Positions 10,398-61,992 of a stretch of DNA of 64,000 nucleotides are shown here, in pieces. The DNA is taken from NCBI GenBank assembly GCA_020137815.1, contig CM035352.1:4278001-4342000 (forward strand), given 5' to 3'. Made by a program: the position numbers and the translations under genes. Every line of letters begins with the position of its first letter. Position 1 is the stretch's first letter. Under the pieces are notes generated by a model, which was not told the origin of the DNA, made no database searches, and saw only the letters and a list, made by a program, of their open reading frames with translations. The stretch is from Hormiphora californensis (taxonomy: Eukaryota > Animalia > Ctenophora).

Positions 10398-13300
10398 TTA
10401 CAGTTGAACATGGAGCATATTGTTAGCGTTTTTGTTCAACAGATTGATAAGGGCCATGGAATGATAGTAAGTTCCCATGAACACGAAAATATGCCAAATA
10501 GCATGGGCGAACAGCATTTTCCCTTCCAATTTGAAGAAAACAATGCCACAGAGAAAGAAGGCGCCTCCCAACATCACTTCGTATAGCTCAGGCCTGTATC
10601 CGACCTGGGAAATCAATGTGTTAGAGAATGGACGAATGACATGATGCATACATGATACATCATACACATATGTATACAAAAGGACAGAGGTAGAATGCTG
10701 TGAGTCAGTGTGACCAGTGATATTTGCGTACCGGTAGTGCTACTACCGGCGTACCGGATTCCGAATCGATCCTCGCATTTGATTGGCTAGTTTTGTCCGC
10801 GCGCGATATCATCCGATGCTGAAACTCCGCGCGAGCACCTCGCGCCTTACAGTCGGTCAGGAAGTGGGGGCTCTAGTGAACCGCTTGTTGCTCGTGAACA
10901 CGGTTCATTGAGTTTACATTATTTTCTGGATTTCACATGTAAAGAAAAACCGCATAGAAAGGCTAAGCTTAACTTAACATCCGAATCGCATTGACATACA
11001 GACATTACTAATTGAAAATAGAATTGAATAGAAACGAATCATTCCGATCTCCCAATTCAACGGGACCAGTTGTCCGGAATTTGTAACACTATACTCATAT
11101 TATATTCGACTGTAAGCAGCTCATACCTGGGATACTAGAACCGCAGCTGGCAGAACTCCCTCCCCCACATACATGAGAAGTTCCAAGCTCGCGTGACTGC
11201 AGGAGAGAGAGGTGGGGTTAGAGGGGGAGATAGGAGAGAGAGGGAGAGAGAGGTGGGGTTAGAGGGGGAGATAGGAGAGAGAGGGAGAGAGAGGTGGGGT
11301 TGGATGGGGAGGGAGAGAGATAGGAAAATTCCTGTCGGAGATGGGCCATATATAGGAGTCAGGAGTTAAAAAAAAGAGAGATTATTTTCGAAGAGATAAA
11401 GTGGGGGAATAAAGAAAGAAATGGTAGGAAATTAAAATTGCGTGATAGGCATGTGATGTGGTGTGAACTAACAGGCAGGTGTGTGTATTAACACGAGACA
11501 GGCATATTTGTGTAATCAGTCAATTTTTTCATCTAAATTCGTGTTGTGTATTATATGAGTGTTGGAAGTAGTTCGCTTACACACTTTAACAGAGATATAA
11601 CAGAGATATAACATACGATATATGGTATAAGTTATAACCAGTCTCATAATATTAATATTAAGATTTAAGAACCCACGTATACATCTCCCGCAAGGATATA
11701 ATTATGCCCATAAAAGATATAAACTACTGCATAAACTGATATTGGCCAAAAAGTGAAAACTTTAGCTAAAAGATCCACTCCAAACTTTTCAACATTACCT
11801 CATTCCCTTGTTGTAAAAGGAGAAGAAGATACCAAAAATGGCCACACTCCATAGGGGGACCATGTAATTAAACGTAGAGATATTGTAGCCTGCAATTATA
11901 TATGGAGTTGTTAGTGTTAAATAGTGAACAATATTAGTCATGCCCGTGGCACACAATCCCGGGTTGTTATGTTCTAACCCTCCTTTACATTTGTAAAGAG
12001 AAGAGGGCGGGGCGCACGAAACACAGTCTAGCTAGGCACATCCCGGGAGTGCGGATCCCTGAATTTCTTGGTGAACCACCCACACCCTCACCCCCTCTAC
12101 TACTACAGAAAACAGGGTACTTCCTCTTAGAGACATTGAATCAATTTAGAGATCTCACTGTGTACACTAACATGTTAGTACACAGTGTTTGGCAGATATA
12201 ACTGTACTGGTTATAACAGTATAGTTATATCTGCTGTGTGTTTGTGTGTTCGGCACCTACCTGCTATGTGTTTGTATGTTCGGCACCTACCTGCTATAGT
12301 AATCCAGGGTGTGTAGGAACCTACCTGCTATAGTGATCCAGGGTGTGTAGGAACCTACCTGCTATAGTGATCCAGGGTGTGTAGGAACCTACCTGCTATA
12401 GTAATCCAGGGTGTGTAGGAACCTACCTGCTATAGTGATCCAGGGTGTGTAGGAACCTACCTGCTATAGTGATCCAGGGTGTGTAGGAACCTACCTGCTA
12501 TAGTAATCCAGGGTGTGTAGGAACCTACCTGCTATAGTAATCCAGGGTGTGTAGGAACCTACCTGCTATAGTGACCCAGGGTGTGTAGGAACCTACCTGC
12601 TATAGTAATCCTGTGCGATCACCACACCCATACAACAGCCACATACATACATATATAACCCAAACCCAAACCTAAACCCTAACACTAAACCTAACCCTAA
12701 CCCAAACCCCAACCCTAATTATAAACCTAACCCTAACCCAAACCCCAACCCTAATTATAAACCTAACCCTCAAACCTGAATCCTAAAACCCGAAGCCTAC
12801 TTTAACCTATGGACTTGATAAGCAGGGTGAAGCCTTATACTATTTTCCGAATGCATGAAATCTCTGTAAATGAAATTGTTTCCCATATATTCGAGTTGAC
12901 GGAAATTGTCGACACTTAGTAGTCCGAGGGCATTATTTGTTATAGAGCATGATAGCACTAGAGCTAAAATTCTATGAATCACGTGACTGGGCAGGTCAAT
13001 ATATCGTTTGGTTAAAGTCATAGAAGTGTGTCTTACCCTGTACCGATTTGATTTGGAGTTTTCCAATATATTAACTTCTTCCAAAAACCTAAAAACCCAG
13101 ACTATTTGACTTCTAGACACCCAACACCCAACACTTCATTTGAACCCGAGTGGTGCGACCCACACAAATTGGCGACCCCGAAGGGACTTTGTAAAAATAA
13201 CATCGCGGTTTTCCTTTTACGATCTCCTTTGTTAATCGTCGTGACTTCCTTCTACGATCTTCATTGTTCATCGTCGTGATTTCCTTTTACAATCTACATT

Positions 13301-16300
13301 GTTCACCCCAGTGAGTTCCTTTTACGACCTACTGTGTTTCATCAACGGACTTTATTTGCAAACTAGGATATTCGAGACAGCATGGCTCGTCCGAATCCTA
13401 ATCCTGAGTTAGACGCTGCAGAAATGTACGCAGACGTACTCACTGCATTCCAAGTTGAGGATCTCAATGATGTGCAATCTAGTGCTCTGGAAAGACTAAT
13501 AAAAAGGGAACGAGATCGAATTCAGACTACCAACGCCGACGCTGACTTGGAACAAATAAGGTCAAGAGCAGGACTCATCCTAAACCGGAATCAACTGTCA
13601 GCACTTAGCCGAAAACCTCCTATATTTGATTGGGACAAAATGGAGATGAAAAGATACATCAAGATGTTTGAGGCGTATACACATGGGCAGCGACTGGACG
13701 ATCAAACACGAATCACCATATTTCAAACATACTTGACAGAAGGCACTTTGGAGAAGCTGGACAACGCTATGCCTGACTTCGACCCAGAACAGAGGACCTG
13801 GGAGGAGTATAAAACCAAGGTGATCCAAGTTATTGCCATGTTAAAACAGGACCAATCTCTTCAGGCAAGGATTGCCTTGAGGGGAAGAACACAGAAGAGC
13901 AGCGAGTCGCTGGCTGAATTCGCAGACGAACTATCTAAACTGGCTCACAAAGGTTGGCCAAAAATGGATGATAAGGTCACCAGGGAAATGGTCCTGAAGG
14001 ACGCACTGGTTTCGGGAGCAAAGAAAGATGAAGTGGGAGTATGGCTAATACAGCAGCAAGATGAAATGTCCTACACAGAGATGGTGCGAAAAGGGACTAC
14101 TCGGGAGTTATCCTACAAGGCTAGAGAAGGAATGAAAGCTCACGAGGGACTAGAAGTGAGTGTATTGCGAGCTGCCCCTACTGAACCGGATAATCAGGCC
14201 AGCGGGAAAAACTGGGGTAATCAGCAGGTGGCAGCAAGACCGAGTGGCATTCAGCAACTTCAAGTGTCAAACTGGCAGACCAATAGACCTCCTCCTAACG
14301 GTGATCATCGAACACAAGATCCTCGGTATGGAGATGTAAGACCCTCATTTGACCTGGAAAACATTATATGTTGGCGGTGCTCAGAGAGAGGACACTTCGC
14401 TAGAGACTGCTCGCTACCCAGGTTTAGGGGGAACAACTCATACGATCGCAGACCCAGTTACAACAGGAACAGCCAGATGTATAACCAGCAGAACCGTCCC
14501 TCGTATCAAGTGCCTCGTAACCAGACAGGTCAGGGTCATGGACCTAACCGGAGTTTGGGATACGGGCCATATAGTGATCCATGGGAGCCATCCAGACACG
14601 TTTCATTTGCAGCAATGCCCGAGACAACACGCACAAATACTCCAAATCCACGGGGTCCAGTAGTTGAGAGCAGCAATCCAGCCCCGGAAAACTAGATTGC
14701 CCCTCCCATGTTTTGGGGAGGGGACGCCGTTTGGAGGATGAGGCAGGAAGTGCTGAAAGAGAGGTGTCAGAAGAAAAGATAGCATCAACTGAACAAAGAG
14801 ACACATGGGATGTAAAAAGCTGCAGTGGGTGTTTGTTTGTCATGGGGGAAATAGTGGGGATCGATGTTAACGCCCTAGTGGACAGTGGTTCGTGTATCAG
14901 TATCCTATCCAGAGAGAAAGCAGAGCAAATGTGTCTTCTCGATAAACTGAAAGACAGTAAAGTGGAACTGATCGGGATATCAGGCAACCGTATTGCAGCC
15001 ATGGGCTGTATTGCCGAAATACCCTTTGAGGATAGATGACACAATATGCCAGGTTTCGGTACAAGTTGCAAAAATAGAGGAGGAAATGATCTTGGGCCAG
15101 GACTTTCTGAAAGACCACTGTTTCACCCTGGATTTTGGCAGCCGTATACTGTTCAATGATCACTTGACAGTATATCTCTCTGAAGGAAAATTTAGTGATG
15201 TGACATTTCCAGTTCCAGTAAAGGTGGCAAAGAGTTGTAAACTGGCTGGTGAACTAAGTCTGATTCCGGGACAAGTGGTGTATGAGGAATCTAAAACTCT
15301 CAAGAATGGGTTGTATATGTTACAGCTGTCTTCACTGTGGGAAAGTTTATTGGATACGGAGGCGGAAGGTGGTGTAGACATAACACCTATTGTTATAAAG
15401 GTGGTGGACAACATTCTGGAAGTTCCACTGGCTATTGCTGATGATAGAGTGACCGTACAGCTTAAAGTGGGGCAAGATTTGGGAATGCTCAGACCGTTAA
15501 AATCTACATACTCGGTGGTGAAGGGCAAGCGGTACGACTCTGATTTCGACCCTGAACGAGTTGAGCAGATTTATTCTGAGCTGGAGATAGATCAGAAATT
15601 ACATCTGACTCTCTCGCAACGGGAGGAACTACGGGACTTGGTGGGGAAAAATGCTGACCTTTTTGCCCTGGGAAGACATGAATTGTGTCGCACGGATCTG
15701 GTAGAACACGAAATTCATCTGAAGTGTAACAAGCCAGTCCAGGCTTCATACCGGCGAGTACCCCTTCATCTACGGGCGGAGTGTATAAAGGAGCTAGAGG
15801 AGTTGTTGGAAGCAGGTATATTGGAACACAGTGACTCTACATATAACAACCCGGTACTCATTGTTCGGCGAAATGACAAAACTCGGGTCTTATTAGATCT
15901 ACGAGAATTGAACTCTAAAATGACTCGGTCGTTCTGCACGGTGCCTGCACTAAACACCATCACTGCAGGGTGTCACGGGGCAAAGTACTTCTCCAGCATG
16001 GATGTGAAGGATGGATTCCTGACTATTCCACTGAAAAAGGAACACCGACATTACACCGCATTTGCTATTCCAGGAGTCGGGAGACTTCAGTGGACACGGA
16101 TGCCACTAGGACTAGCCACCAGCCCAGCCACTTTTCAGCTCCTTTTGGACAGGCTCCTAGCAGGCGTACCACCGGAGGTAGCATCAGCATTCGTCGATGA
16201 TATCTTATCCCCTGCTAAGACGTTCGAGAAAGTTCTACAGAATCTAAAAGTCGTTTTTGGTAGACTCAGAGTGTCAAAGCTTAGACTTAGCCCTAAAAAG

Positions 16301-19300
16301 TGCAAGCTGGCAGAGCAGCGGTTGAAGTACTGCGGAGTATATTTGTCCGAGCATGGAATTGAAACGGACCAGGAAAAGATAAGGGCAATAAAGGATATGA
16401 AGACTCCATCCACTTATAAGGAACTGAGGTCGCTAATAGGGTCGTTCTCATGGTTCCGGCAACATATCCCAAAGTTTGCTGAAATAGCCAGGGGCCTTAC
16501 AGAGTGTCTCAAGGGAGAGAAAATGGTCATCACTGCTGAAGCTCTGGAGAGCATAAAAAGGTTAAAGGAGGCGCTGTGTTCACCTCCGATCCTGATATTT
16601 CCGGATCCAGAAAAGGTTATGGTGTACTACACGGACGCGAGTGAGAAAGGCATAGGTGGGTGTTTGGGACATGAAATGGAAGATGGGTTTCGAGTCATAG
16701 CGTATAGCTCCCGTGCACTAAGTCCAACTGAGAAACGATGGGCGTCGTTTAAACGAGAACTATTTGCTATATGGTTCCACACAACTAAAGCTTGGAGATA
16801 TTATTTGCTGGGGGCAAGCGCACGGTGTCACACGGATATGAAGGCAATAACACAAGCTGGATTTATGAAGCATTGCAGTCAACCCATTATAATCCGGTGG
16901 TTGATGGATCTAGGGAGTTACAATGTGGAGTTGGTATTTACAGCAGGAACGAATATGGAACTTCCTGACTGTCTATCGCGTTGCCCAGCAACAGTGAAGG
17001 AGATGTATGGATGGTGGACAGGGGAAGAGAAGCCTTTGGAAGATTCGGATGATGACGAACCTCGAGTACTTTGTGTAACCGCTGAAGGGGTAAAAGATAT
17101 ATCGGTAGAAGCACCAATCAGCGAGTCGGATACCGAACTGGAAGTGACTGAATCGGAAGTTATTGCCGAAAACAGTTGTAGTACAATAGAGCCTGAAGGA
17201 TCATTCTCCAACCCGATCCCTGCTAGTCACAGTCAAAGTGTAAAGGAGGCTCAAGAAAAAGACCCCGAGTTAAAGATCGTCATGGAGTGGGTTCGTGAAA
17301 AACAGAAACCAAAGACTAATCAGGGACTTACCTCACAACTAATGTGGGCGTGGCGTTATTACGAACACTTGGATATCAGCAGGCATGGCCTCTTGATTTA
17401 CAAGTATCATCAAAGCGCTTCTAAAAAGTTCAAAGAATTGCTGGTTGTTCCTGCAAATCTACGAACTGAGATTATTCGGGCACACCATGATCGAGATGAA
17501 TCGGGACACCAGGGCCCCAAAAAGACTCTTCTGCGGGTTAGAGACAAGTACTTCTTCGAGCACATGACAGAGCAGATCACTTTGTATTGTCGTACCTGCC
17601 CCACGTGTTTCATGTTCAACGAGACTTACAGAAGAAATCCAGCCGCTCCTCTAAAACCATTCCAGTCATCACGTCCGAACCAATGTGTTGCAATAGACTT
17701 GGTGGGACCAATTCGAGGACCGGGTCCATATCGATGGGTGCTAACTATGGTAGACCGTTTCACAAGATATTTATGCGCTGCTCCACTCCGAAATGCTACT
17801 GCCAAGGCCGTTGGTGACGCTCTGATGAAAGAGTGGATTTGGAATGCAGGGCCACCGGAAAGTATCTTGTCTGACCGAGGTGCCAACCTAACTACCGCTA
17901 CTGTCATACAAGAGGTGTACAATGTCCTGGGAATAAAGAAGCTGCAAACTACCGCTTACCACCCTAAAGGCAATGGACAGGTGGAAGGTTATAATAAACA
18001 CCTCGTTGTGGTCATGAAGAAACTCGTCACTGACCAACCTTCTAAATGGTATCTAAAGATAAAACCGGCTGTGTTTGCATTGAACAGTTCCGTTTGTCCA
18101 AGTACTGGACACGTTCCAGCGCACCTATGGTTTGGAAGAAGGATTCGCGTTCCGAGTGATTTGGTTTTCTCCACATCGAGCACGGTATTCTATGTGAGTC
18201 AGTCCCATTTGGCTAGTCAACAGTATGAAGAACTGCGGGAAATATTTGACAGTGTTCGTGTCGCCAGTGGTTTGGCATTGTCTCAACAAAAGACAGCACA
18301 CGATAAACGAAAGGGTTTCCATTGCACCTACAAGGAGGGAGATCGAGTGTTAGTAATGCGGCCTTTACCTCCCTGGATTAAGAACTACCGAAGTTCCGAA
18401 CTGGCTTTACAGGAGTCTATGTAATCCGGAAGTGTCTGTCTGCGTGGACGTTTGTTACTTGAGCACGAAACGACCAAGAAGGAATATGTGGTGCACTTTG
18501 ACAGCATGAGGCTGGTGAATTCACAACTGCGAGGACCTCTACCAGTGTTGGAAAGTAAGAGTGGCACCGCAGAACAAACTGAGCACAACAATGAACTGAT
18601 CTCATACACTGAACCGCCTATAATGGTTGAAGAAGACGATGAGGAGGACACCTGGGGACTGGAACCAATCTTTTTTCCGACAGAGGCACCGACCACTACG
18701 GAAACAGTTATCCAAACTGAGCCCGTGGGTACAGAGCAGCAATCTGAGGAAGAGCGAGAGTTGCAGGAAGTTACACAGAACACGGTTGCAGAGGCCGATG
18801 ATGAAGAAACTAATGTGGGAAGAAGGTCACCGTATATGTTGCGAGATCGCAGTTAGATACCGGAATGTGTTGGGAAGCACGCTCACACATCACTCTGATA
18901 CCACTGCTGGCTGTTCATCTACTTCAAAATCCGGGTACAGTATAATAATCATCGCAGTGTACTACTCGGTCATTGTCTCCAATGTGTCAAGTAACGAGGA
19001 TTCGGGTTTCTACAAAATGGGCATGGCTCATTCGACATCTCCCTTGGATCTTGGCTCTCGGAGTGTATACCATAGCATGGCTATGTGAGTACAATGGCTG
19101 GAGAATATGACATAGCATGGCTATTCGAGTAACCTGACTGGAGGGTATGACATAGCATGGCTATTCGCGTAACCTACTGGAGTGTAGGAGCAACATCTCA
19201 GTGCGGAATACGCCGAATACTTGATGACGAGTGAGGAAAGTGTGAGTGCTACCACATAGGTATGTGATGTATGTAAAAACAATCAATAAAACTCTCGAAC

Positions 19301-22300
19301 TGATGAACAATTGTCTTGATGATGAGATTACACTGACTAGAAACTTGAACAATGATCCTAGTAAGTCGTGAGTGTGTCTGAATGTGAGCATAATGATTTA
19401 AACACTGAAAGTAGTACCATTTGAGCATTGACCTGCCCGGTCGTAGAATAGTAGAATTTAGTGAAGCATTTGTTTTGAAGCATTGATTGAAGTATGTGAA
19501 TAAAGCAACTGTAATTACCTGGATCAAAAGTTGCATATGAACAACTTGTTTACAGCCCAAATTGAGATTCGGAATGGATTTATAATATCACATGAATACG
19601 TATTTCAGTGGAACGGTGTTAATATAATGGAGATAGTGCTAGTATATATGTATGAAGCCAGATGTCGTGACTAGTAACCGTACTATGATACGATGTGTTA
19701 AAATTGTTGAGGTGTGTATGTTGGCTCAGCCAAACCTGCACAAGTCACTTTCATTCGGCACAAACTTGTTTTGTAACTAGTCGACTAGGCATTCATTACG
19801 TCACTTTGATCATTAATCATTTGTCCTTTGTGAATGCTTGTTGCAACTCGTAGTATTTGCCAATAGAAATGTCTTTACAGTCAGGCTTGATTAGAGTGCA
19901 CTCTAGAGCTGTTGTGATAAAAAACCTCATGATGTGAAGTAAACAGTGTGTACTTGTTGGTTACAAGTTGAAATGTGTTTGAAATGGTATTGAAATAATG
20001 TGATCTGTGAACAAGCTTACTTGATGTTAGAGCGTGAAGTTGTAAAAAAAAATGTATGATAAGTGTAACGAGTTGTGGTGTGATAATTGTGGTGAATACC
20101 GAATATGACCGTATTAATTAATTTAGTGTTCCCAGTGCAGTAGCAGCATGGCTGAACTACCGTCTTCATCAACAGAGGAGGAACTAAGGGAGCTGCTGAA
20201 ATGTCCGGTGTGCTACTGTATTGTGCGTCCCCCTGTTACCCAGTGCCCTGAGGGACATGTAATTTGTATCGGTTGCAAAGAGCAACTAATGGAAGAGGTA
20301 TGCCCTGTCTGCAGGTCCCCCTTGCAGGGGAAAATACGAAACCTGTTCTTTGAAAAGGTAGCGACGATGTTGCCTCTTCTCTGTGAAAGTAACTGTGGAG
20401 AAGCAGTTGAATTCAATGACACAACACATTATTTGACCTGCACAAACCGATATGTGAAGTGCCCGGAAACGGACATTTGTACTCATGTGGGCACGCGGAA
20501 AGAGTTGAGGGATCATTTGTACGGACATGCTACTAGTGAAAAAGTGGTAGGAGACACCGTTGTACTAAAACTGGATTGCCTGGATGGGCAGAGAGCAAAG
20601 TCATGGACTCTTCCTCTCATTGCCTATGAGGAGCCCTTCTGGGTAAAAATTGAGAGTAAACCGAAGAAGGAGATTGAGGTAGCGGTATATTCGTTATCCT
20701 TGCTTGAAAAGAGGTTTGAAACAACCATTGACGTGAGGAGCAACAGTACTGACGGGGGCATCAAGTGGAACGGGCCAATTCCAAACCTGGAGAGCGACTA
20801 TGGTGTAAACGAGGGAGACGTCTTGATTATTCCGTGTCGAACCTGGCAGCGACTGCTCGGCACATCGAGGGATCTGAGTGTCAGGGTCCGAATTAGGCAG
20901 CAACAGACCGTGCAGCTCAATGGATGTGAAATCCAGTAGTGTGGGTGTGTGTGTGTGGGTTCGGCACCTCCCAAATCCAGTAGTGTGTGACAACACACAT
21001 GTAGGCGTGTGTAATGAATATAACCTGTACATGTGTATGGTGTGACTGAAACCCTTTATTTTATGTTTTCACAATGATCCTTGTTTTCATACCAGTTTAC
21101 TGCACTGCACTGTACGTTGTCTCCACACTAACCAAATTATTCTCCCTTTTATCATGACATAGGTAATGAGGTGGTGGACTCTGCAGTTATTTCTCGTCGG
21201 TGTTGGATTAACTCTATATGGGGCCATGGGCCTCCGGAAAGAGGATTCGTTAGACAACAGCAGGCAGTATCAAAGAAGAGGCGCCGAGGTTTTAACCAAA
21301 GAGGAAATCGGTGTCGCCCTGATTCCCGATAAACTACTTGCTACTTCCGACCAGTCAGTTCTACAATCTGTGTTTCTGAGTCTACGACTTCCAGGTACCC
21401 CAGCTAGTCCGTGTCTTATTCCATGTGTACCTGATCTCTCGAAACTGGCCCTGAATATGCCTACCAGTGAAGACAATTGTTGGATTCGACAAATGGCTAT
21501 TAACCAGATGACTGTTATTGAGACTAAGAAGGTGAATTCGGCAGTGTTATGTTTCTCAGAGTGTCTAATGGTGTCTCGGTGTCTGCAGCTTACTTACGAG
21601 TTCGAAACAGGGAAATGTATACTTGCTGACGGGAGAAGCTACCAGCTCACTAACATAAATCCAAACCTACCAAGTGACTCTGTGACATCAAGGCTTGAAT
21701 GCATCTTGGAGAAAATGGGAATGACCCGATCCTCTGCGTGTGGTGGAGAGCAAAACCCACTACATGATTTACTGGTGAAAGAGTTGGAGACCTCCCGGAG
21801 GCAATACCGTAGGTTATATTTGGACAGGTTCTATGATCTAAAGTCTGCATTTGACCTGACTCTGGAAGGCAAAAAGACCAGTCGACAGACCAGGGCCTCG
21901 TTGGATTTCCTGAACGACATTCCGGTAATTAATTATTTCTACCAGCTATTGAAGAGTCCAAGTGAAAATAAAAAAATCAAGGTTCACCTTCATGAGCTAA
22001 AAGAGGCATTCGAGATGTTTGCAGCGGACACTATTAACCGACTGAATTCGGAACGAGAGTACAACGGGCAGATATTACAGATTGTGGACAATGAAATCGA
22101 GGAAATCTATCAGCAAATGCATGGCATTAAATGTGATGTTTCCACCCTAGCTTCTCTCCTTGTCCAGCTCCAAGCAGATCGCATTTTCGAGAAAAAGCTG
22201 AGCACTTTGTTTTTCAGCACTACTCATGGAAAACTGGCTGTCCCCATCACCACTACCCTGAACCTGGCTGACCTAAAGAAGATCGTCTCCAAGAATCCCT

Positions 22301-25300
22301 TGTTCCAAGATACAGTTTATTTACAACGACCGGAAATGTTGTATAGATTAGGTGATCTCATGCTGATGGAGGTCACTGAGGGACCACAGTGTATCCTGTT
22401 TCACTTCCTGTTGATAGCTCCGAAGTTAGAACCACAAAACGTATTCCAGACGTATAAAGGCCTCTCGGTACCGATTAAAGGTGAAGAGGAAATGTGTTTT
22501 AGAGTGGAGATTCCCGAGTTACTTATTGTCGAGGAGAAACAGGTATCACAGGTTTCAACCACACAATGTATGGAGAAGGACAACGTAATATTCTGTTCCC
22601 AGTCGTTCACGGATAAGTTCTCCCCTCTAAAAGAGGAGTGGGACTGTTTTAACACCGGAAACTGCGAGCTGACTCCCTCACCATGCACCACGTCAATGGT
22701 TTTCACAAAAACTGGTGCACTAATATTTTCTGAGAAGGAAGTCCTGGGGATGAAGGTCGAGGATAAATCCTCACTCTCTGTCATCAGTGAAGCTGACAAA
22801 TGTACATATTTTGTTCCATGGGAACAATATAGTATGGTCCAAGCGGATAGAAAGGTAATGCAGCACCCTTTTGACAATGAAGTCACCTATCGAAACCTAT
22901 CCTGGACATCTCCTGAACTGAGCGCTGTATTAACTAGGACCCTGAGGCAAGCAAAAATACAGAGAGATCGCTCCAACATTACCCTGCTATCACAATTGGT
23001 GGAACAGCAAAAAGTTATGGTGAAATCGGACTATGAAGTTGGTTTTCTTGGACTGCCGGTCTCGAGACGCAAGTTCATGGAAATAATTGGATGGATAAGT
23101 TTAACATCCACGGTGATAATGGTGATAATGTATTGTATGCGGAGATATAAAGATGGAGTGTTAAATCGGGTAAACTTTGTAGCGGAACAAATCGGAAGAT
23201 TGGGACCGGGGGTAACCCCATCTCATGGCGCCTCGGTGCCGGCTGTCGAACATGGTTCGCGGCCGGAGCCACGGCCGTCTATCGAAGGATACAGTGGTGT
23301 GCGACATGGTCTTCACATCACTTCCGACGATCTTCCTGTTGAATCTGCAAGTGGCGAACCTGACTACGTAGTGATGACACCCATTCCGACTGCACCTGTT
23401 GAAACTCCTACTCCCTCCAATCCTCCTACTACAGAACATGGTTCTACAGTAATGAGAAATGGAGACACTCCGAGGAGGAACCCCCCTGTGTGGCTGTATC
23501 CAGAGTTGGAATAAAGTGTTGACATCTCTATAGGACATTAACTCTGTAATATACCGGACTTCCAAAATTTCGACAATTGTTATGTTTCTCTGTTTGATTA
23601 TTTTCTTCTTGTGGATGACTCGACAGTACCGAGGAAGGAGGACACGTAGGGGAGAGAGGGTAATACGAGTAGTTTTCCCAAGAGTGAGACTCCCAGGAGG
23701 AGTTGTGACCAATGGGGGATCGGGATGTGCGTGTGATACCCGGCCAACTTTACCGCCTCGGGTGGTTCATGAGGATTACCCGTTCAGATGGCTTATCTAT
23801 ATAAGGTTTCTGGAAAGGGCTGAAGAGCTGTCTGTGGAATTCCAAAGACACCACATGCTCAACCAGGATGTAATGGACGCGTATGACGCGTTCACAAGAT
23901 CCAAAAATGAAATTCTGAAGGCACTAAAAAAGAGGATGAGAGACCACTACGGAATGAGGTTGAATGAACTCCCTGCACAGAGATGGAGGGAACAACTGAT
24001 AGAAGGAGTGGACATGATTAACTCGGTGGTGAACCCAACTGGTACCCCGGGAGCAGACGGGACCTGGCGAGGTGTAGCTTGCGTGCAAATGAGGAGAGGG
24101 CTGCAGTGTTTGATAAGCCTATATAATGAAAGAGCTGACGGACTGTAATCATGTGGAGACTGTATGTTACTGTCTGTGATCACTGTCGGAACTGAACTGT
24201 CTGAACTGGTGTATAATTTATAAAAATAATAAAAAAAGTATATATGAAAAATATGTGAAAGTGAAAACATGTAAACGTATCCTGTAACTGTATTTAACCG
24301 TACCCTGTGACCGTATCCTAGAAATGTATAATGTAACTGTATCCGTATTGTAACCTTTATTTAGTTTAAGACCAAGCGGTCGACTTTTTGTATAAACCTC
24401 GTTTCAATGTAACCGGAGTGTTGGATTTGGAAACCCGGAGAAGGAGGTTAAAACCCGTCTCATAGGAGGGGGTGAATATGTGCGATCACCACACCCATAC
24501 AACAGCCACATACATACATATATAACCCAAACCCAAACCTAAACCCTAACACTAAACCTAACCCTAACCCAAACCCCAACCCTAATTATAAACCTAACCC
24601 TAACCCAAACCCCAACCCTAATTATAAACCTAACCCTCAAACCTGAATCCTAAAACCCGAAGCCTACTTTAACCTATGGACTTGATAAGCAGGGTGTGTG
24701 TGTGTGTGTGTTTTGCACCGCCCGTCATTCCTCCCACTTTACTGCCCCACAATGGTCGGCAGACAACCTATATTAATATCACTCTTCGCCACCGTCCCCC
24801 ACACGTAGGGATAATGTTGATGTTGTTCCGGTTTGGGTCCTGGTATTTTGTCGAGCAAGCTCAACATTTCCCTCGAACCTTCGCCGGCATCACAAGAAGA
24901 GTATTTGATACAGTGAATCTAATATTAGACTGACATACCTATATTGTCAGGACAATGGATGGAATTTACCTGTCTCACAGACTGGTCTTTGGTTACTACT
25001 GCTCCAGGGAGCTGTAGAGGTAGGTGGGTTGCCGGATATGACAATACCGTGGGTTCACCATCTAATCGGTGACGGCTGAAATATCTTATCACACCTCAGG
25101 TCTTTGGTCAAAACCGCTAGCAGTACTTATCAGCATGCAACCTGGGGGTCCGGACAGCTAATTTCTTAGCAAGCACAGATAAGCATGAAAAACGCTTATG
25201 TAAACTTCTGGTGAGCATTTGGCAAATTATCAGCTCCCAGGGGTTGCACTATTGCGGGGTAATTACTTGCCATACGGCGGAGGTGGCCCTTTGTTATGGC

Positions 25301-27911
25301 CCAGACCTGCCCTACCTTAATCGTGGGTCCCTTATGATGTGGTTTTGTTGGAATTCCCCGGCCGTAGCGATTCTTGCCCTGTGGTTTGCTACTTCTTTCA
25401 GGTCGGGATGGTTGGGGATGGTTTAATCGAATAGGTTACTTTTGGCTATTAGTTTGGAGAATTTTACCAAATCAAGTGTGTTGCTTGATCTGTTTGTTAG
25501 TGAGGAGGATTATTCTAGATATATTGCAAAGGTAGTATGTGGCAAAAATTTGGGCAGAGGTTCCCCAGGGGAATAACCCCTATTTTTGCGAGAGAAGGTA
25601 ACCTCCGTCCGACCAATATGGGATGTTGGACAGGAGGGCTGTTTTAAAGGCTACAGCTGCCGGGTGATTACAAATCATGGGTTGCCGTAATTGAGGGAGG
25701 CTAGTTCTCTGGCGTAGAATTTACCCCCATAATTAAATGGGAGACAGCCGAAGGGTCATCAGGCATGCCTAGTAGGCAGAGGCCCTCGGTGATTACAAAT
25801 CATGGGTTGCCATGTGTAACAAGGTTACTGGCTGGGGTGAGATTATCAGTTCAACCGGGATCCTCACTAAGACTCAGCCCGACGACCGACCGACAAACGA
25901 TCGATCAACGACTGATATCAATCGTCAACCAACCGCTCATCAATCGACCGCCGAACCAAATCCCAGCAGGGACCAGCCGCACTGCAAGAGCTCGGTGCCA
26001 TAGTTGAGTTCGGCAAGGTCTCTGGCAAAGTTTACTCCCCAAGATTGGGGAGAGAGCCGGTGTGATTTGACCGTAATCATTGGACCATCAGCCAACCAGG
26101 TCCACGGCAACGGGACTGAGCTCGAAGAACTCAGCTGGCACGAAGAACCTGAGTTCCCCCCGCTGTGATAAGCAGGGTGAAGCCTTATACTATTTTCCGA
26201 ATGCATGAAATCTCTGTAAATGAAATTGTTTCCCATATATTCGAGTTGACGGAAATTGTCGACACTTAGTAGTCCGAGGGCATTATTTGTTATAGAGCAT
26301 GATAGCACTAGAGCTAAAATTCTATGAATCACGTGACTGGGCAGGTCAATATATCGTTTGGTTAAAGTCATAGAAGTGTGTCTTACCCTGTACCGATTTG
26401 ATTTGGAGTTTTCCAATATATTAACTTCTTCCAAAAACCTAAAAACCCAGACTATTTGACTTCTAGACACCCAACACCCAACACTTCATTTGAACCCGAG
26501 TGGTGCGACCCACACAATCCATGGTGTGTAGGAACCTACCTGCTATAGTGATCCAGGGTGTGTAGGAACCTACCTGCTATAGTAATCCAGGGTGTGTAGG
26601 AACCTACCTGCTATAGTAATCCATGGTGTGTTAGGCACCTACCTGCTATAGTGATCCAGGGTGTGTAGGAGGCAGCGATAAAGAGATAGATTGTGGCGTG
26701 GTCACTGATCCTCAGGAATTCTGTAATGTTCCTGAAATGCAGGGAGATATTGTGAGTCATACTGCAGTACAGTATACACACTGTGTATTACACAGTACAC
26801 ACGCAGACAGACACAAAGATAGACAGAGGGATAGAAAAAGAACACACACGGTTGTATTGAGACATTGCCTCACACAATATTTTCATTCAGTGAATTCAAT
26901 TGTGCAGTATACTACATAGAAAGGCACTGCATCACGCACTTGCATGATAATATGATTTTCTCTATTTCAACCTCAAACAATAGAGATGCGTACATCACAC
27001 CTCTTTGTGAATGATAGGGAGGCGAATAAAAAGTATAATTTGGTGGCACAAAACTGTGAAAATTATTTTATTCGTGGACATCAGGTGATATTGCAGCCAT
27101 ATTATCAATAGAAGAGTTGTTTGTTTAGGGGGAATGTTTGTAGAATGTGCCACTCGGGTAAAGTATGACAACTGAGGTGGGGTAACATGAATGGAGAGAG
27201 ACACGTACAACGAGAGGATTATATCTAAAGACTAGAGAGAGATCAGTCCAGAAAAGAAGAGGATAAGATAACATCTCATGCACTATGCACCTATGAAAAG
27301 AAGAGGGTGTTGAAACTGAGGTATAACAGTTCTCACTAACCTGTATGGTGTAAAGCAGGAACAATGGTACAGGGTGCTCACGGAGAAGAGAATGATCAGG
27401 GAAGCCCCATAGATCCACGCATTCCAGAGGTCCTCCTGGGTCTTGGCCAACGTGCAGAACAGGTATAACATGTACAGACTGGATGGTATAAACATCTGGG
27501 GAAATATTGGGGGTTGTTAGAAGTAGTTTGCTATTTTGTATTGTGTTATGCAGAAAGCGGATGTGTCTACTATGCTGCGATGTAGCGACTTTTGTGAGTG
27601 AAATGCCATTGCGTCTGCTGCAGCTGAAGACCGGAAATAGACAGGAAACTAGACAGGCATGAGAGAGAAGTGAGTCTAAATTGGAATATTTTCCGGGTAG
27701 GTAATCAATTATACAAACAAATTGTTTCAAACTATAAAAAGCAATAGGATGTTAGAAATTGCTACTGATCATATCCCGAAGTAGACATATTTTCAGTCAT
27801 TAAAATGCCACTCACCCCATGAGTTAAGCAGTTAGCAGCCTCCTCCACAATTGTGCTCTGTTTTGACTTGATGCTGCACTCATGGTCCGCAACCTGGTGA
27901 CGTTGGCACAT
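10398..27911 (-). CDS. MMD: Monocyte-to-macrophage differentiation factor (PAQR/hemolysin-III family) membrane protein
   Basis: Exons 27911-27816, 27495-27341, 26731-26643, 11889-11799, 11196-11127, 10604-10398 join in phase. Motifs EEAANCLTHG, STLYH, DHATIYLFIAASYTPW, FFKLEGKMLFAHAIWHIFV. A further 5' exon is possible. Confidence 0.9.
12255..12611. repeat. 34-bp minisatellite, left part (continues 26517-26670 beyond the retrovirus)
   Basis: Unit CCTACCTGCTATAGT(G/A)ATCCAGGGTGTGTAGGAA, about 10 copies on the left and 4 on the right. It equals the MMD exon-3 end plus splice donor on the minus strand. Confidence 0.9.
12612..13166 (+). repeat. 5' LTR (555 bp)
   Basis: TGTGCG...CACACA. Matches 24479-24696 plus 26180-26516 in length, with no difference seen by eye. 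Confidence 0.95.
13170..13187 (+). promoter_or_regulatory. Primer-binding site, probably tRNA-Arg
   Basis: TGGCGACCCCGAAGGGAC, 3 nt after the LTR. It is close to the complement of the animal tRNA-Arg(TCG) 3' end as I recall it (TGGCGACCACGAAGGGAC). Confidence 0.8.
13382..14695 (+). CDS. gag: Gag (capsid-like region + CCHC nucleocapsid knuckle)
   Basis: 437-aa ORF with LRGRTQKSSESLAEFADELSKLA (gypsy gag motif) and CWRCSERGHFARDC. Confidence 0.93.
   Translation: MARPNPNPELDAAEMYADVLTAFQVEDLNDVQSSALERLIKRERDRIQTTNADADLEQIRSRAGLILNRNQLSALSRKPPIFDWDKMEMKRYIKMFEAYTHGQRLDDQTRITIFQTYLTEGTLEKLDNAMPDFDPEQRTWEEYKTKVIQVIAMLKQDQSLQARIALRGRTQKSSESLAEFADELSKLAHKGWPKMDDKVTREMVLKDALVSGAKKDEVGVWLIQQQDEMSYTEMVRKGTTRELSYKAREGMKAHEGLEVSVLRAAPTEPDNQASGKNWGNQQVAARPSGIQQLQVSNWQTNRPPPNGDHRTQDPRYGDVRPSFDLENIICWRCSERGHFARDCSLPRFRGNNSYDRRPSYNRNSQMYNQQNRPSYQVPRNQTGQGHGPNRSLGYGPYSDPWEPSRHVSFAAMPETTRTNTPNPRGPVVESSNPAPEN
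14686..14723 (+). promoter_or_regulatory. -1 programmed ribosomal frameshift signal (gag to pro/pol)
   Basis: G_GAA_AAC immediately before the gag TAG, a 7-nt spacer, then stem CCCCTCCCA/TGGGGAGGGG. The -1 frame is open into the protease. Confidence 0.8.
14692..18856 (+). CDS. pol: Pol: aspartic protease, reverse transcriptase, RNase H, integrase; three 1-nt frame disruptions (~15024, ~18390, ~18452)
   Basis: ALVDSGS...ILGQDFL; RMPLGL and AFVDD; YTDAS; HHCC zinc finger, AIDLVG, SDRG, GQVE. A GPY/F-like KFRTGFTGVYVI lies in a shifted frame. Acidic tail runs to 18856. Confidence 0.93.
20148..20939 (+). CDS. SIAH/SINA-family RING E3 ubiquitin ligase, intronless, carried inside the retroelement
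   Basis: LKCPVCYCIVRPPVTQCPEGHVICIGC...CPVCRSPLQGKIRNLFFEKVA is the SINA RING signature. It is followed by two zinc fingers and a beta-rich TRAF-like C-terminus. Confidence 0.9.
   Translation: MAELPSSSTEEELRELLKCPVCYCIVRPPVTQCPEGHVICIGCKEQLMEEVCPVCRSPLQGKIRNLFFEKVATMLPLLCESNCGEAVEFNDTTHYLTCTNRYVKCPETDICTHVGTRKELRDHLYGHATSEKVVGDTVVLKLDCLDGQRAKSWTLPLIAYEEPFWVKIESKPKKEIEVAVYSLSLLEKRFETTIDVRSNSTDGGIKWNGPIPNLESDYGVNEGDVLIIPCRTWQRLLGTSRDLSVRVRIRQQQTVQLNGCEIQ
21166..23514 (+). CDS. env: Env: class I (F-type) fusion glycoprotein with PAN/apple-like insert
   Basis: Signal peptide; PAN-like Cys pattern at ~21475-21705; furin-type site RQTR at 21883-21894 followed by a hydrophobic peptide and heptad repeat; Cys-rich region; TM at ~23074-23139; Pro-rich tail of about 125 aa. 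Confidence 0.85.
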   Translation: MRWWTLQLFLVGVGLTLYGAMGLRKEDSLDNSRQYQRRGAEVLTKEEIGVALIPDKLLATSDQSVLQSVFLSLRLPGTPASPCLIPCVPDLSKLALNMPTSEDNCWIRQMAINQMTVIETKKVNSAVLCFSECLMVSRCLQLTYEFETGKCILADGRSYQLTNINPNLPSDSVTSRLECILEKMGMTRSSACGGEQNPLHDLLVKELETSRRQYRRLYLDRFYDLKSAFDLTLEGKKTSRQTRASLDFLNDIPVINYFYQLLKSPSENKKIKVHLHELKEAFEMFAADTINRLNSEREYNGQILQIVDNEIEEIYQQMHGIKCDVSTLASLLVQLQADRIFEKKLSTLFFSTTHGKLAVPITTTLNLADLKKIVSKNPLFQDTVYLQRPEMLYRLGDLMLMEVTEGPQCILFHFLLIAPKLEPQNVFQTYKGLSVPIKGEEEMCFRVEIPELLIVEEKQVSQVSTTQCMEKDNVIFCSQSFTDKFSPLKEEWDCFNTGNCELTPSPCTTSMVFTKTGALIFSEKEVLGMKVEDKSSLSVISEADKCTYFVPWEQYSMVQADRKVMQHPFDNEVTYRNLSWTSPELSAVLTRTLRQAKIQRDRSNITLLSQLVEQQKVMVKSDYEVGFLGLPVSRRKFMEIIGWISLTSTVIMVIMYCMRRYKDGVLNRVNFVAEQIGRLGPGVTPSHGASVPAVEHGSRPEPRPSIEGYSGVRHGLHITSDDLPVESASGEPDYVVMTPIPTAPVETPTPSNPPTTEHGSTVMRNGDTPRRNPPVWLYPELE
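23582..24148 (+). CDS. Unknown accessory ORF (hydrophobic N-terminus, polybasic stretch, helical domain)
   Basis: Intact 188-aa ORF between env and the PPT. The frame is open upstream to an AG at 23532-23533. AATAAA follows. Confidence 0.6.
   Translation: MFLCLIIFFLWMTRQYRGRRTRRGERVIRVVFPRVRLPGGVVTNGGSGCACDTRPTLPPRVVHEDYPFRWLIYIRFLERAEELSVEFQRHHMLNQDVMDAYDAFTRSKNEILKALKKRMRDHYGMRLNELPAQRWREQLIEGVDMINSVVNPTGTPGADGTWRGVACVQMRRGLQCLISLYNERADGL
24464..24478 (+). promoter_or_regulatory. Polypurine tract
   Basis: AGGAGGGGGTGAATA directly before the 3' LTR TG. Confidence 0.85.
24697..26165 (-). mobile_element. Non-coding (CA)n-tailed retroposon inserted in the 3' LTR
   Basis: 14-bp TSD TGATAAGCAGGGTG at 24683-24696 and 26166-26179. 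(TG)n at the left end. Second copy at 58172-60529. Confidence 0.9.
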
Positions 27912-30714: not shown

Positions 30715-31677
30715 GTGATGGGAACGAACGACAACGAGGGCGATAACCCTACGAATGAACGATTGATAAAATCAGTGAATGACTATGTTTCGGAGATCAT
30801 GAGATTGGAATACGCGGGAACCTCGGAAGAGATGAATGTTGAACCTCAGCTGGTAACAGATAGCTACAACTTTTTCAAACATTTTCCTGAGTCAAAACTG
30901 ACCCCTGATAGTGCTGGTACAGTTTATAAAGATATAAACACCTATTTTAGACATTCTCTCAAGAACTTATCTAAAGAGGAAATAATTGACGCCACATGTA
31001 AAACGTTTTTGTCCAGTGTAAAACTTCTCAAATGTGCAATGCACAGCCTTGATGAGATTGTTAGTACGAGGAAACTCGAGGAGGAGTTACGAAAGTGCAA
31101 GGAAGAACTTGACCGCCACCGTGTCAATGTGATTGAGCTACAACAAACCGTTATTAACGCCCAAAAGGAGCAACTGAGTTCCGTAAAAACTTCAGTGCAG
31201 AAGGTGAAAGCCTACTCTACTGTACTGGCTCAAAACTGTGCCGCAGTCTCTCCGGTGGTGAGAAAGTCTTCTCAAGATCCTGCTTCCACACCATCGTCCG
31301 ACAGGGAGAAAAACCTTGTTATTTTCGGTATACCAGAAACAACTGACCGCCTGACTAGGAATAGTGTTGATGGTGTGTTTGCCGAGTTGAACGAAAAACC
31401 AAAAGTTAACTCAATGAAACGTATCGGCGAGAGAGACGAGAAGGGCCCTCGGCCAATTTTGGTTTCTTTTGAAAGGCGAGCAACACTTTTGGCTCTGCTG
31501 AAAAAATCACGACAGCTCAAGAACTCGGAACATTTTTCAGCTGTTTACCTGTCACCTGATTTAACCCCGATTCAAATTAGAGAGCGAAAAACTCTTATAA
31601 ACACGATGAAAAAACTCCGCTTAGAAGACCCGAGTGGAAAGTACTATATTAAAAACAATATAATCCAAGTTGGATAA
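30715..31677 (+). CDS. LINE ORF1-like protein (coiled coil + RRM/CTD) with no ORF2; UTR ends in an (ATTGAT)n tail near 31872
   Basis: REKNLVIFGIPE, RPILVSF, VYLSPDLT, KYYIKNNII motifs. Intronless. Confidence 0.75.
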   Translation: MMGTNDNEGDNPTNERLIKSVNDYVSEIMRLEYAGTSEEMNVEPQLVTDSYNFFKHFPESKLTPDSAGTVYKDINTYFRHSLKNLSKEEIIDATCKTFLSSVKLLKCAMHSLDEIVSTRKLEEELRKCKEELDRHRVNVIELQQTVINAQKEQLSSVKTSVQKVKAYSTVLAQNCAAVSPVVRKSSQDPASTPSSDREKNLVIFGIPETTDRLTRNSVDGVFAELNEKPKVNSMKRIGERDEKGPRPILVSFERRATLLALLKKSRQLKNSEHFSAVYLSPDLTPIQIRERKTLINTMKKLRLEDPSGKYYIKNNIIQVG

Positions 31678-33281: not shown

Positions 33282-34225
33282 ACCAGAAAAAAATTTGTTA
33301 CAAAGGATTTCCACCTCAAATGTACTCCTAAGGGTCCCCTCTATCGATTCCAACCAATGTTCATATTTGTTCAGGGGTGCTAAGGCCTCATTTCCGGGTG
33401 GGCGTGGTACCCGTATTTTCAGCCTGAGGCCAAAACCATAAGTACCCTTAAAATTGGAGTAGAGATAAAATTGAGGGCACTAGAGTGATCAGCGTCCTCG
33501 CATTAGTGGGGGTAGGTGCCGGAATTAAGTCTCTATCTCATCCGGTTAATTAGATAATCGGATAATTAGGTATGCGCATAACCATTTTTTGGCTATATGG
33601 CTATAGCCACTTAAGAATGGTTTAGAGACTTTTCACTGGTGCCATTTTGTTCAGAAGAAAATTCTAGAGAGAAGTTGTGGAAAAATTTAGGGCCTATCTC
33701 TTACCGTTTTGCCGTTATTTGCGGTAAACGAATGCCAAATTAGTCGAAAAAGCCAAAAATCGAGTTAATTGGCATTCGTTTACCGCAAATAACGGCAAAA
33801 CGGTAAGAGATAGGCCCTAAATTTTTCCACAACTTCTCTCTAGAATTTTCTTCTGAACAAAATGGCACCAGTGAAAAGTCTCTAAACCACTCCTAAGTGG
33901 CTTTAGCCATATAGCCAAAAAACGGTTATGCGCATACCTAATTATCCAATTATCTAATTAACCAGATGAGATAGAGACTTAATTCCGGCACCTACCCCCA
34001 CTAATGCGAGGACGCTGATCACTCTAGTGCCCTCGATTTTATCTCTACTCCAATTTTAAGGGTACTTATGGTTTTGGCCTCAGGCTGAAAATACAGGTAC
34101 CACGCCCACCCGGAAATGAGGCCTTAGCACCCCTGAACAAATATGAACATTGGTTGGAATCGATAGAGGGGACCCTTAGGAGTACATTTGAGGTGGAAAT
34201 CCTTTGTAACAAATTTTTTTCTGGT
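33282..34225. mobile_element. Foldback element with ~460-bp inverted arms
   Basis: Arms differ by a few substitutions around a ~25-nt centre. Possible outer ends TA|AGGTGAT (33262) and ATCACCT|TA (34255). Confidence 0.85.
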
Positions 34226-41249: not shown

Positions 41250-41845
41250 AGGGTATGATCTGTTTTTACCCCGTTTTTACTTGTCATACTACCATACGGT
41301 ACATGACTGTATGAGAGGGCAGTCTTTTGTGAGACAAGACAGGGTCAGCTAAAATTCTAACAGAGTTGACTAATGACCCGCGTTAGAAATACTGAAACTG
41401 ACAGGGACATGATGGGGTGGTTTAATTTATTAATTTTGCACGTGTTTTACCTTTACAGTTTTATCTGGATCTGCAACACAGGTTCGGAAACAGCTAATCC
41501 CCGTTTTTATGATAGCACCTAATAAAAAATGCGCAACCCCCACTCAATCCAAATCAAAACATGGCAGGCAGGTGGGACATGGTGTCTGTCAGAGATTTGG
41601 CCTGACAGCAAGTAAGCTAACTTGGCCGTTGTTTTTTTCAAAAACTCCTGAAGAAGCAGGATTAGCAATTCAGGATTAGACGTCTCTAACAGCACTGTTT
41701 CGTTTGGGTCATGTCTCGTTCATTGTTTCTGTTCATATCACCACAGATCTACCAAACTTAAAAGTGCCCTGACACTTTGGTAGTTCGATATCGCAGTTGT
41801 TACACATTTTGTCACAAAACAGAGCTCTGGTCTGTCCCGATACTA

Positions 41846-43418
41846 CAAGGTGGCCCATAAATTATGAGGCCGGGGGACGAGTTGTACCTCCGAAACGGTG
41901 ATAGTTGTGCAAAAACAAACTACGGGAACATGCTGGAACAATTCCTTGGTAACTTTTTGCAAATTTTGAGTTTTTTATTCAAAAGTTCATTTTTCATTCA
42001 TGAACTATTTGCACGTTCATTAATGAATTAAGGACTCTAATTTACCGAGAGTGAGCCATTTTGTTTGGGTTGAGTTTATCTTTCCAATGAGCACCATGAA
42101 AATCAAATTGAAGCACCAGGTCACATGGCAGTTGAGAAAATGCACATGCATGATTTTGGCTCTTCCTGCGACTTTCAATCAGCTGTATCACAGCTACCTT
42201 TTGTTCAAACTTTTTAAATATTTGGGTGAACATTGGATAAGCAAAGATCGTTGCTCACAAGAAAAATCAAGGTCAAAACTGAAAGTTCATTTTTAAGTTT
42301 TGGTAGTTCATTCCACTCATTCAGGAACCAACATCCCTAAAGTGATGAAAAGTGATTGGTTTTGTTTGGCCCATACCCTGCAATGATAGGGAGGTGTAAA
42401 AACACGTTTCCGGGCTAGTTAGTGGGTGTCCACTGTCCATGTGATCATGATGATATCTGACACCTCTTCTGAGCCATAATCAAGGGATTTTCTCGAATTC
42501 AAGCATGTGATTTGGGTTATCTGTGATTGGTATCGTGCAGCAATGTTGAGAGATTTCATAGCACCTCAAAAATTACGATTAGCTCAATGAAATAAGTTGA
42601 TTTATGATAGAAGAGATTAAAACAGACGTCAAAATGAACTAAACTACCATTTTCGATCCAAAATCAACTCATTTCATTGATCTAATCATAATTTTCGAGG
42701 TGCTATGAGATCTCTCAACATTGCTGCACGATACCAATCACAGATAACCCAAATCACATGCTTGAATTCGAGAAAATCCCTTGATTATGGCTCAGAAGAG
42801 GTGTCAGATATCATCATGATCACATGGACAGTGGACACCCACTAACTAGCCCGGAAACGTGTTTTTACACCTCCCTATCATTGCAGGGTATGGGCCAAAC
42901 AAAACCAATCACTTTTCATCACTTTAGGGATGTTGGTTCCTGAATGAGTGGAATGAACTACCAAAACTTAAAAATGAACTTTCAGTTTTGACCTTGATTT
43001 TTCTTGTGAGCAACGATCTTTGCTTATCCAATGTTCACCCAAATTTTTAAAAAGTTTGAACAAAAGGTAGCTGTGATACAGCTGATTGAAAGTCGCAGGA
43101 AGAGCCAAAATCATGCATGTGCATTTTCTCAACTGCCATGTGACCTGGTGCTTCAATTTGATTTTCATGGTGCTCATTGGAAAGATAAATTCAACCCTAA
43201 CAAAATGGCTCACTCTCGGTAAATTAGAGTCCTTAATTCATTAATGAACGTGCAAATAGTTCATGAATGAAAAATGAACTTTTGAATAAAAAACTCAAAA
43301 TTTGCAAAAAGTTACCAAGGAATTGTTCCAGCATGTTCCCGTAGTTTGTTTTTGCACAACTATCACCGTTTCGGAGGTACAGCTCGTCCCCCGGCCTCAT
43401 AATTTATGGGCCACCTTG
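41846..43418. mobile_element. Tc1/mariner-type foldback element with ~760-bp arms
   Basis: TA|CAAGGTGGCCCATAA...TTATGGGCCACCTTG|TA. Inserted in a ~17-bp CCTGTCCCGATACTATA repeat. Confidence 0.9.
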
Positions 43419-43513
43419 TATACCTGTCCCAATACTTTCCCGATACTATACCTGTCCCGGTACTATACCTTTCCCGATGTGCCATACCTGACAGTCCCTC
43501 TGTTATAAAACTT

Positions 43514-46412: not shown

Positions 46413-46883
46413 GGCTAGAGAGGGAATGGAGGGAGAGGTTATAGGCATAGACAAAATGGGTAATTGGACACTGAATGGGATAGGAACTAGGGAGAGTTAG
46501 ATTATAAAATTTTTGGTAGATTTTACAAAAACAAGAATTTTAAATGAAACTTTGGTCACAGCTCTGAGAACTAACTGAATATAATATTTGCATGGGCCAT
46601 TCTTATCTAACATAACCACTCGTGAGACAAGTATTTTGGGCCTCGCGTGATTTTATGTGCCGAACGATAAGCACCGCAAATTGTATTAGTCTCAAGAGAA
46701 TCACACCCCATTCGAAGAAGTCACATACCACCCATCACCCCAGCAAGCACCTGCGTCATTCGTTCGTCAATGTGACGTATTACACCCTCTGAATTTTATT
46801 CTGGTTTAGTCGAATCATTCTCTCGGCAAAGAAGTTTTAAAGTGGTTTATTTTATCTCAGACCGAGTTGAAAAAGCAGAAATC

Positions 46884-61896: not shown

Positions 61897-61992
61897 GGCA
61901 ATACATTCTGAAGACAATCATACTATAGTACATTGCCGGAGTCAATACAAAATATATGGATGGTGACCATTTCTCATGTACTACATGATGTA

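Follow-up and report, generated by a model that had tools for sequence, protein, structure and literature searches.

The described systems closest to the locus reported here are the env-bearing gypsy elements of ctenophores, for which Chary and Hayashi (eLife 2026; PMC13524379) give nine rows, six of them F-type. The 'ancient errantiviruses' described there (for example Bfor_1, Mlei_1 and Hcal_2) likewise have a Ty3/gypsy pol, LTRs and an F-type env with a furin site after pol, and Bfor_1 and Mlei_1, at about 13.3 kb, share a long interior with the present element but differ from it in their listed PBS. In that paper the three F-type rows with LTR coordinates have interiors of 11.8, 12.2 and 7.9 kb. 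The interior here measures 11.3 kb, of which gag-pol and env account for 7.8 kb; that two of the published interiors are close to 12 kb, against 7.8 kb for gag-pol plus env, may mean that unannotated extra genes are common in these elements. The main text of PMC13524379, compared here by its descriptions, with sequences and figures aside, contains no match for SIAH, ubiquitin, accessory, apple or RING and hence gives no description of extra ORFs or a PAN domain, and it treats the entry mechanism of invertebrate F-type envelopes as open outside Drosophila.

Drosophila errantiviruses and other insect ERVs, as described by Senti et al. (2025; PMC12992720), express env from a spliced subgenomic RNA and have repeatedly lost env, giving env-less derivatives; they are described with three ORFs and, unlike the element here, with no ligase gene or PAN domain. 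Bdelloid LTR retrotransposons are described in PMC5408684 as having captured an ORF3 after pol (GDSL or DEDDy enzymes, or a paramyxovirus-like F env), a single one in each element compared with env and two further genes here, and that account mentions neither RING nor zinc. Accessory ORFs within Metaviridae are also described for the Drosophila MDG1 group, whose elements lack env (sORF1 and sORF2; bioRxiv 10.1101/2025.03.14.642691), and for Cer1 of C. elegans (CERV; PMC10309623). The original prediction for this DNA had taken accessory genes as a mark of complex vertebrate retroviruses; this is overstated, since the bdelloid ORF3s and the MDG1 sORFs are described as accessory ORFs outside that group. 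Neither the MDG1 sORFs nor CERV is, in these accounts, a ubiquitin ligase.

Lentiviral Vif, Vpu and Vpr (Retroviridae) are adaptors that hijack host cullin ligases and steer ubiquitination against host defence. By analogy, the purpose of the ligase gene described below is likely to be similar, with the difference that here a self-contained ligase is encoded by a Ty3/gypsy element. A literature search, with subscription papers mostly outside its scope, found neither a SIAH/RING ligase gene nor a PAN domain in LTR elements. The earlier view that no described element has this gene set appears to stand as regards SIAH and the PAN-env, and needs qualifying because ctenophore env-bearing gypsy elements are already published (PMC13524379, as described there); the kind of element is known, whereas the gene set appears to be new. 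It is probable that the SIAH, PAN-env and orphan genes of this young Ty3/gypsy element are long-held genes of a comb-jelly errantivirus-like lineage that would use the ligase on host proteins.

Organization and age of the element

The window is a stretch of 64,000 nucleotides from Hormiphora californensis (GenBank assembly GCA_020137815.1, contig CM035352.1, positions 4,278,001 to 4,342,000). The element and its parts are located in it as follows.

12608..12611, plus strand: left TSD (ATCC, 4 bp), inside a 34-bp minisatellite
12612-26516, plus strand: Ty3/gypsy LTR element, with the LTRs, TSD, PBS and PPT expected of Metaviridae
12612..13166, plus strand: 5' LTR, 555 bp, TG...CA
13170..13187, plus strand: PBS-like motif, beginning TGG
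13382..14695, plus strand: gag, 437 aa, with a CCHC zinc knuckle
14668..18856, plus strand: pro-pol, with PR, RT (FVDD), RNase H and H2C2 + DDE integrase
14686..14723, plus strand: candidate (predicted) signal for -1 frameshifting; the gag stop is preceded by the heptamer G GAA AAC, and a hairpin follows
19526..24239, plus strand: 4.7-kb block (spacer, SIAH, env, ORF5), absent from a ~99% identical sister, with a 6-bp direct repeat at both ends
20148..20939, plus strand: SIAH/SINA-type E3 ligase gene, 263 aa, with C3HC4 RING, two zinc fingers and substrate-binding domain
21130..21162, plus strand: candidate acceptor-like site made up of CTAAC, a pyrimidine tract and TAG, with the env ATG following 3 nt later
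21166..23514, plus strand: env, 782 aa, with hydrophobic N-terminus, PAN/apple domain, furin-like site, F-like region, TM and long tail
23582..24148, plus strand: ORF5, an orphan of 188 aa, with a hydrophobic N-terminus and, after it, a patch of basic residues (7 K/R in 15 aa)
24464..24472, plus strand: polypurine tract, preceding the 3' LTR
24479..26516, plus strand: 3' LTR, TG...CA, interrupted by a later insertion (halves 24479-24696 and 26166-26516)
24697..26165, no strand assigned: non-coding high-copy repeat, 1,469 bp, foreign to the element, with its own 14-bp duplication
26517..26520, plus strand: right TSD (ATCC)

The LTRs, TSD, PBS and PPT around the element and the three open sense ORFs after pol had all been predicted, and all were confirmed. 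The two LTRs agree at 555 of 555 bases when both 3' halves are counted, which supports a recent insertion; their predicted identity is borne out with the proviso that the 3' LTR is split by the 1,469-bp insert, without which the element is 12,436 bp long. Because this repeat lies in one LTR only, it arrived after the integration of the element. It has the look of a non-LTR or Penelope-type element of the non-autonomous kind, and further copies of it, with their own duplication, lie at 58169-60529 in the window. The repeat has a (GT)n end, and its target duplications are long and variable in length; at 58169-60529 the distal ~0.9 kb is partly repeated in tandem. No hammerhead core was found in the insert, and an Rfam scan of it gave a single, sub-threshold miRNA-like match.

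No priming tRNA was matched to the PBS-like motif, and the 64-kb window contains no tRNA genes. Telomere-like repeats resembling TAACCC abound in the 5' part of the LTR (12612-12830, ~220 bp); the LTR has 22 hexamer matches and 5 perfect CCCTAA. Short direct repeats, possibly RNA signals, occur in the 5' leader (13210-13343) and behind pol (19060-19165), the latter set being variable among sister copies. Nine AATAAA motifs in 13.9 kb correspond roughly to the chance estimate, so no internal poly(A) site is claimed.

The predicted gag-pol is present in its content, with a CCHC-bearing gag and, in a domain scan, the pol order PR-RT-RNaseH-IN with catalytic motifs; however, pol is not one frame, having two breaks in the window. 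The first lies between 14972 and 15039, past the active-site DSG of the protease; the second, close to where the integrase ends, is a stop codon at 18422-18424. Around this second break the contigs of three short-read runs (X1, X3 and X5) disagree with the window at full depth, so that the break is likely to be an assembly error or private to the window copy. Element copies in X5 carry frameshifting deletions in pol. The protease lies in the -1 frame relative to gag, and from the position of the heptamer and hairpin we infer that Gag-Pol would be made through a -1 frameshift; the hairpin itself (8 bp, 7 nt 3' of the heptamer) is unexceptional compared with shuffles (folding z -1.0). The best solved-structure match of pol is Ty3 Gag-Pol (E 3.8e-64), with retroviral RT at 6e-30 or weaker. 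By this similarity ranking the RT is nearer Ty3 than retroviral RT and falls outside the pol lineage of Retroviridae; the element may work like a complex retrovirus yet is no member of that family.

The genes behind pol

In one sample, short-read contigs span 19431-20318, 20846-22899 and 23076-24263 with 0 differences from the window, and the gene order is therefore not an assembly chimera. The first of these genes had been predicted to be a captured SIAH ligase, and this was corroborated: the full domain set is present, in the same order as in host SIAH/SINA ligases (RING, two zinc fingers, substrate-binding domain), and its differences from diverged copies are mostly silent (see below). The Sina RING profile PF21362 matches at 37.9 bits (E 2e-9; curated cut-off 29.3), and the ORF matches human SIAH1 (PDB 9g0l) at E 2e-14. 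The C-terminal half scores 41.5 bits on a SIAH-like profile built from 80 of 150 library matches (length 240-420, query excluded), with 0 of 500 shuffles above 3.3 bits. Since all eight RING ligands and all eight zinc-finger ligands are also kept, the gene encodes a complete, though remote, SIAH. It differs from host SIAH/SINA ligases in its low identity (22-28% to 14 aligned SIAH-like proteins), its long branch and its intronless frame inside an LTR element; a tree by a quick method (118 rows) gave it no supported sister. A protein library search returned no match better than E 1e-30, and a word-index search of public protein sets returned no SIAH match, which is not proof of absence. The predicted fold (pLDDT 32) is unusable.

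The env protein has a PAN/apple domain at about residues 116-167, a furin-like RQTR site at 240-243, an F-like cysteine region at 430-522 and a transmembrane helix at 640-658. It is a fusogen-like ORF after pol with signal peptide, furin site and TM, which is one of the features by which errantiviruses are operationally recognized in PMC13524379; another is an uninterrupted gag, pol and env, on which the two pol breaks of the window, and the contigs that disagree with it at one of them, bear. A Pfam scan of env gave PAN_1 at E 3e-4 and Fusion_gly at E 0.009, both under the curated cut-off. When env and its relatives were scanned together, PAN_1 appeared in 4 of 5 proteins (18.5-21 bits, cut-off 21.4), as did Fusion_gly (E 0.009-0.0005, all under the cut-off). 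The PAN cysteines are invariant in 4 of 4 aligned env proteins, all four env relatives scanned have the domain by Pfam match or conserved cysteines, and in the three relatives that are 35-38% identical these cysteines are retained together with the furin site and other env features. The predicted PAN-domain env is thus supported by its cysteines and by the PAN and F-like regions of its relatives, although both Pfam matches stay below threshold. The PAN module shared at 35-38% identity is a candidate for the receptor-binding part of invertebrate F-type envelopes. Searched against the PDB, the env profile matches microneme proteins with apple domains best (E 0.015 and 0.06); the predicted env fold (pLDDT 34) is unusable. 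Searches of viral contigs and metagenome contigs with the env profile and RT gave no loci, and an Atlas search with env gave no match, which does not prove absence.

The acceptor-like site before env ranks at the 97th percentile of 803 AG sites and is among the 24 of 803 passing a strict filter; the corresponding sites of SIAH and ORF5 score average, so that env alone has a strong one. An in-frame TAG lies 2-17 codons upstream of gag, SIAH, env and ORF5 (13364, 20124, 21160 and 23531), a pattern noticed post hoc; these TAGs may mark splice acceptors. If that at 23531 were used, ORF5 would have a longer hydrophobic N-terminus.

No ORF reaches the length of ORF5 when its interval is shuffled 2,000 times, and the base composition of ORF5 is coding-like. 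A domain scan found no convincing family, the word-index protein search gave no homologue and the Atlas only noise at a score of 0.76, which again is not proof of absence. Of the features of FAST/sORF2-like proteins (60-210 aa, one TM, polybasic patch, N-myristoylation), ORF5 fits the class in size, hydrophobic stretch and basic patch and falls short of it by having no MGxxxS/T motif. As described, MDG1 sORF2 (bioRxiv 10.1101/2025.03.14.642691) has a TM helix and a polybasic patch, as ORF5 may have; set beside the accounts of sORF2 and CERV, ORF5 read from its first ATG lacks both an N-terminal myristoylation motif and an ectodomain.

A sister without the block and diverged relatives

The element stretch is contained in 5 of the 7 runs listed; these five come from two studies, and those that cover it best may stem from the source sample. 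In X1 the depth is 34-45 over gag-pol, 18-19 over the extra block and 21 across a joint (19525 -> 24234) that skips the block, and X3 shows the same ratio of gag-pol, block and joint. In X5, from another sample, the joint is present, the env core is without cover and the block-less form is the only near-identical form seen; missing env-core cover in X5 and X6 is not read as proof of absence. The depths and the joint together reveal a sister, ~99% identical, that lacks SIAH, env and ORF5 together. Its differences, as listed, are silent at 7 of 7 sites from RT to the integrase core and at 2 of 4 in the pol tail, and the silent pol differences suggest that the block-less form has replicated as its own line. 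The sole RNA-like run covers just one 36-base repeat of the stretch, and a loose contig end at 22732 had no match in the window.

The original prediction had named, as evidence that would count against it, sister copies without the extra ORFs and extra ORFs with TSDs or poly(A) of their own. The former was found in part, in that the closest sister lacks the block; deletion fits this better than insertion. As to the latter, the block is flanked by 6-bp repeats and has neither terminal repeats of its own nor a retroposition tail. It is nevertheless conceivable, if rather unlikely, that the block-less sister is ancestral and that a plain gag-pol element acquired SIAH, env and ORF5 secondarily, by insertion, in which case the 6-bp repeat would be a TSD and the A-rich 3' end a retroposition tail. 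The precise absence of the block from the sister in two samples, the direct repeats at both of its ends and an A-rich stretch just inside the right repeat agree with such an insertion. However, the block occupies the usual place of env, in sense orientation between pol and the PPT; its A-rich end is an AATAAA directly abutting the repeat and not a tail set 10-30 nt downstream; and the same linked pieces recur in more diverged copies. Even if an insertion did occur, the source of the block would be a related element.

More specifically, sequences related to SIAH, the spacer that follows it, the 3' part of env and ORF5 occur in X1, X5 and X6 at 80-95% similarity, and the relatives within this species that carry such pieces are ~83-87% identical. 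The ungapped alignment of one X6 contig over 20197-20488 has 49 differences, and diverged copies run from SIAH into the same spacer as in the element. Both X5 and X6 have a contig whose end, lying before ORF5, agrees with SIAH 20240-20261 at 21 of 22 bases; judging from this match, it is a diverged copy with an internal deletion, in which SIAH and ORF5 are joined in this order. In-frame 6-nt and 3-nt indels recur in the diverged SIAH and env copies, and other copies are frameshifted. A gag ~79% identical is also present in the runs, but no contig was found that ties any gag or pol to the diverged SIAH or env pieces. Conservation of gene order in other copies, which the original prediction had put forward as a check, is seen for the SIAH-spacer linkage and the SIAH-ORF5 join. 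In X5 and X6 the diverged pieces at 20420-21100, 22730-23240 and 23963-24066 are several-fold deeper than near-identical gag-pol, suggesting amplified, internally deleted derivatives.

Among the best-supported rows, 35 of 46 SIAH sites differing from the diverged copies fall at third positions (32 rows from one X6 contig and 14 from a second comparison), and of 43 codons 33 are silent, 10 changed and none a stop, for a rough omega of 0.09. They come from the 40 rows with the best support out of 132 and out of 252 in the two comparisons, leaving out non-coding rows, one pol-break row and three SIAH and three env duplicated rows. On this pattern of substitutions, the element SIAH is under purifying selection against the diverged copies. 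Neutral evolution of the extra ORFs, the remaining observation that had been named as adverse to the prediction, is contradicted for SIAH and is little constrained for env, where the best-supported rows offer five sites, three of them silent (p 0.10). The linked diverged pieces, the SIAH-ORF5 join and the mostly silent SIAH differences favour deletion of an old block over a fresh insertion, although they are not proof.

The same signal could stem from host paralogues if SIAH were a recent host-gene passenger of no use to the element, which we regard as unlikely. In favour of a passenger, the diverged SIAH pieces are not linked to pol by any contig, SIAH families are expanded in many animals (by named library matches), and the sister suggests that the element transposes without SIAH. 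Yet the diverged pieces continue into the element spacer and are fused to ORF5; they are deep and include decayed, frameshifted copies, as mobile copies do; and an identity of 22-28% to the 14 aligned SIAH-like proteins implies that there is no close public host counterpart. Several observations weigh against the preferred reading. The block-less sister is about as deep as the block in one sample (21 vs 18) and is the only near-identical form seen in X5, the diverged SIAH and env pieces are linked by no contig to a gag or pol, public protein sets yielded no close relatives of SIAH or ORF5, and some diverged copies carry frameshifting indels. Further, env alone has a strong acceptor, the F and PAN matches stay under the Pfam cut-offs, and the selection count draws on the best-supported rows.

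Proposed mode of action and neighbouring features

The motif PxAxVxP is a known SIAH degron. None was found in the proteins of the element itself, and SIAH is for that reason proposed to act on host proteins. It would ubiquitinate host restriction or silencing factors; alternatively, it might dimerise with host SIAH and so poison it. The env gene, and perhaps SIAH and ORF5, would be expressed from spliced or leader-trans-spliced subgenomic RNAs, Env, cleaved by furin, would act as a class I fusogen and bind a receptor or glycan through its PAN module, and ORF5 would be a membrane-anchored accessory protein. The block-less sister would be an env-less derivative that arose via template switching at the 6-bp repeat, comparable to the env loss of insect errantiviruses; in line with this reading, six bases are shared at the sister junction, and at least 6 are shared in 0.17% of random junctions.

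A further reading, which is very improbable, has selection keeping the block while SIAH targets proteins encoded by the element itself, or while infection has ceased and env is a relic. Near-identical env cover in one sample only and the small env selection test are compatible with a relic, but the env frame is complete, its 782 aa including signal, furin site and TM, and the lack of the degron argues against targets within the element. Of the predicted infectious lineage, a young gypsy element with an F-like, PAN-bearing env is supported; infectivity itself was put too strongly. A bolder proposal, which we offer tentatively and consider doubtful, is that comb jellies host infectious complex gypsy retroviruses in which the lentiviral strategy evolved independently, with SIAH directed against host defence proteins, a PAN-F fusogen, a membrane accessory protein and a spliced or leader-trans-spliced operon, all shed together on becoming a plain retrotransposon. 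If the use of the ligase on host proteins is real, this would be an LTR retroelement encoding a whole ubiquitin ligase under purifying selection, of which no description was found, and the SIAH substrates would point to the proteins with which an early-branching animal counters viruses or silences transposons. The ~99% identical pair with and without the block provides a natural comparison for the switch from retrovirus to retrotransposon.

Elsewhere in the window, three adjacent long ORFs at 45442-49394 on the minus strand show, by eye, repeated saposin-like cysteine patterns; they are close together and apparently single-exon. A 320-aa ORF at 30715-31677 resembles, also by eye, a non-LTR ORF1-type coiled-coil protein. 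Long, near-perfect inverted repeats with arms of 298-769 bp and short spacers occur at 41844-43420, 33282-34225, 61991-63193 and 56817-57590.
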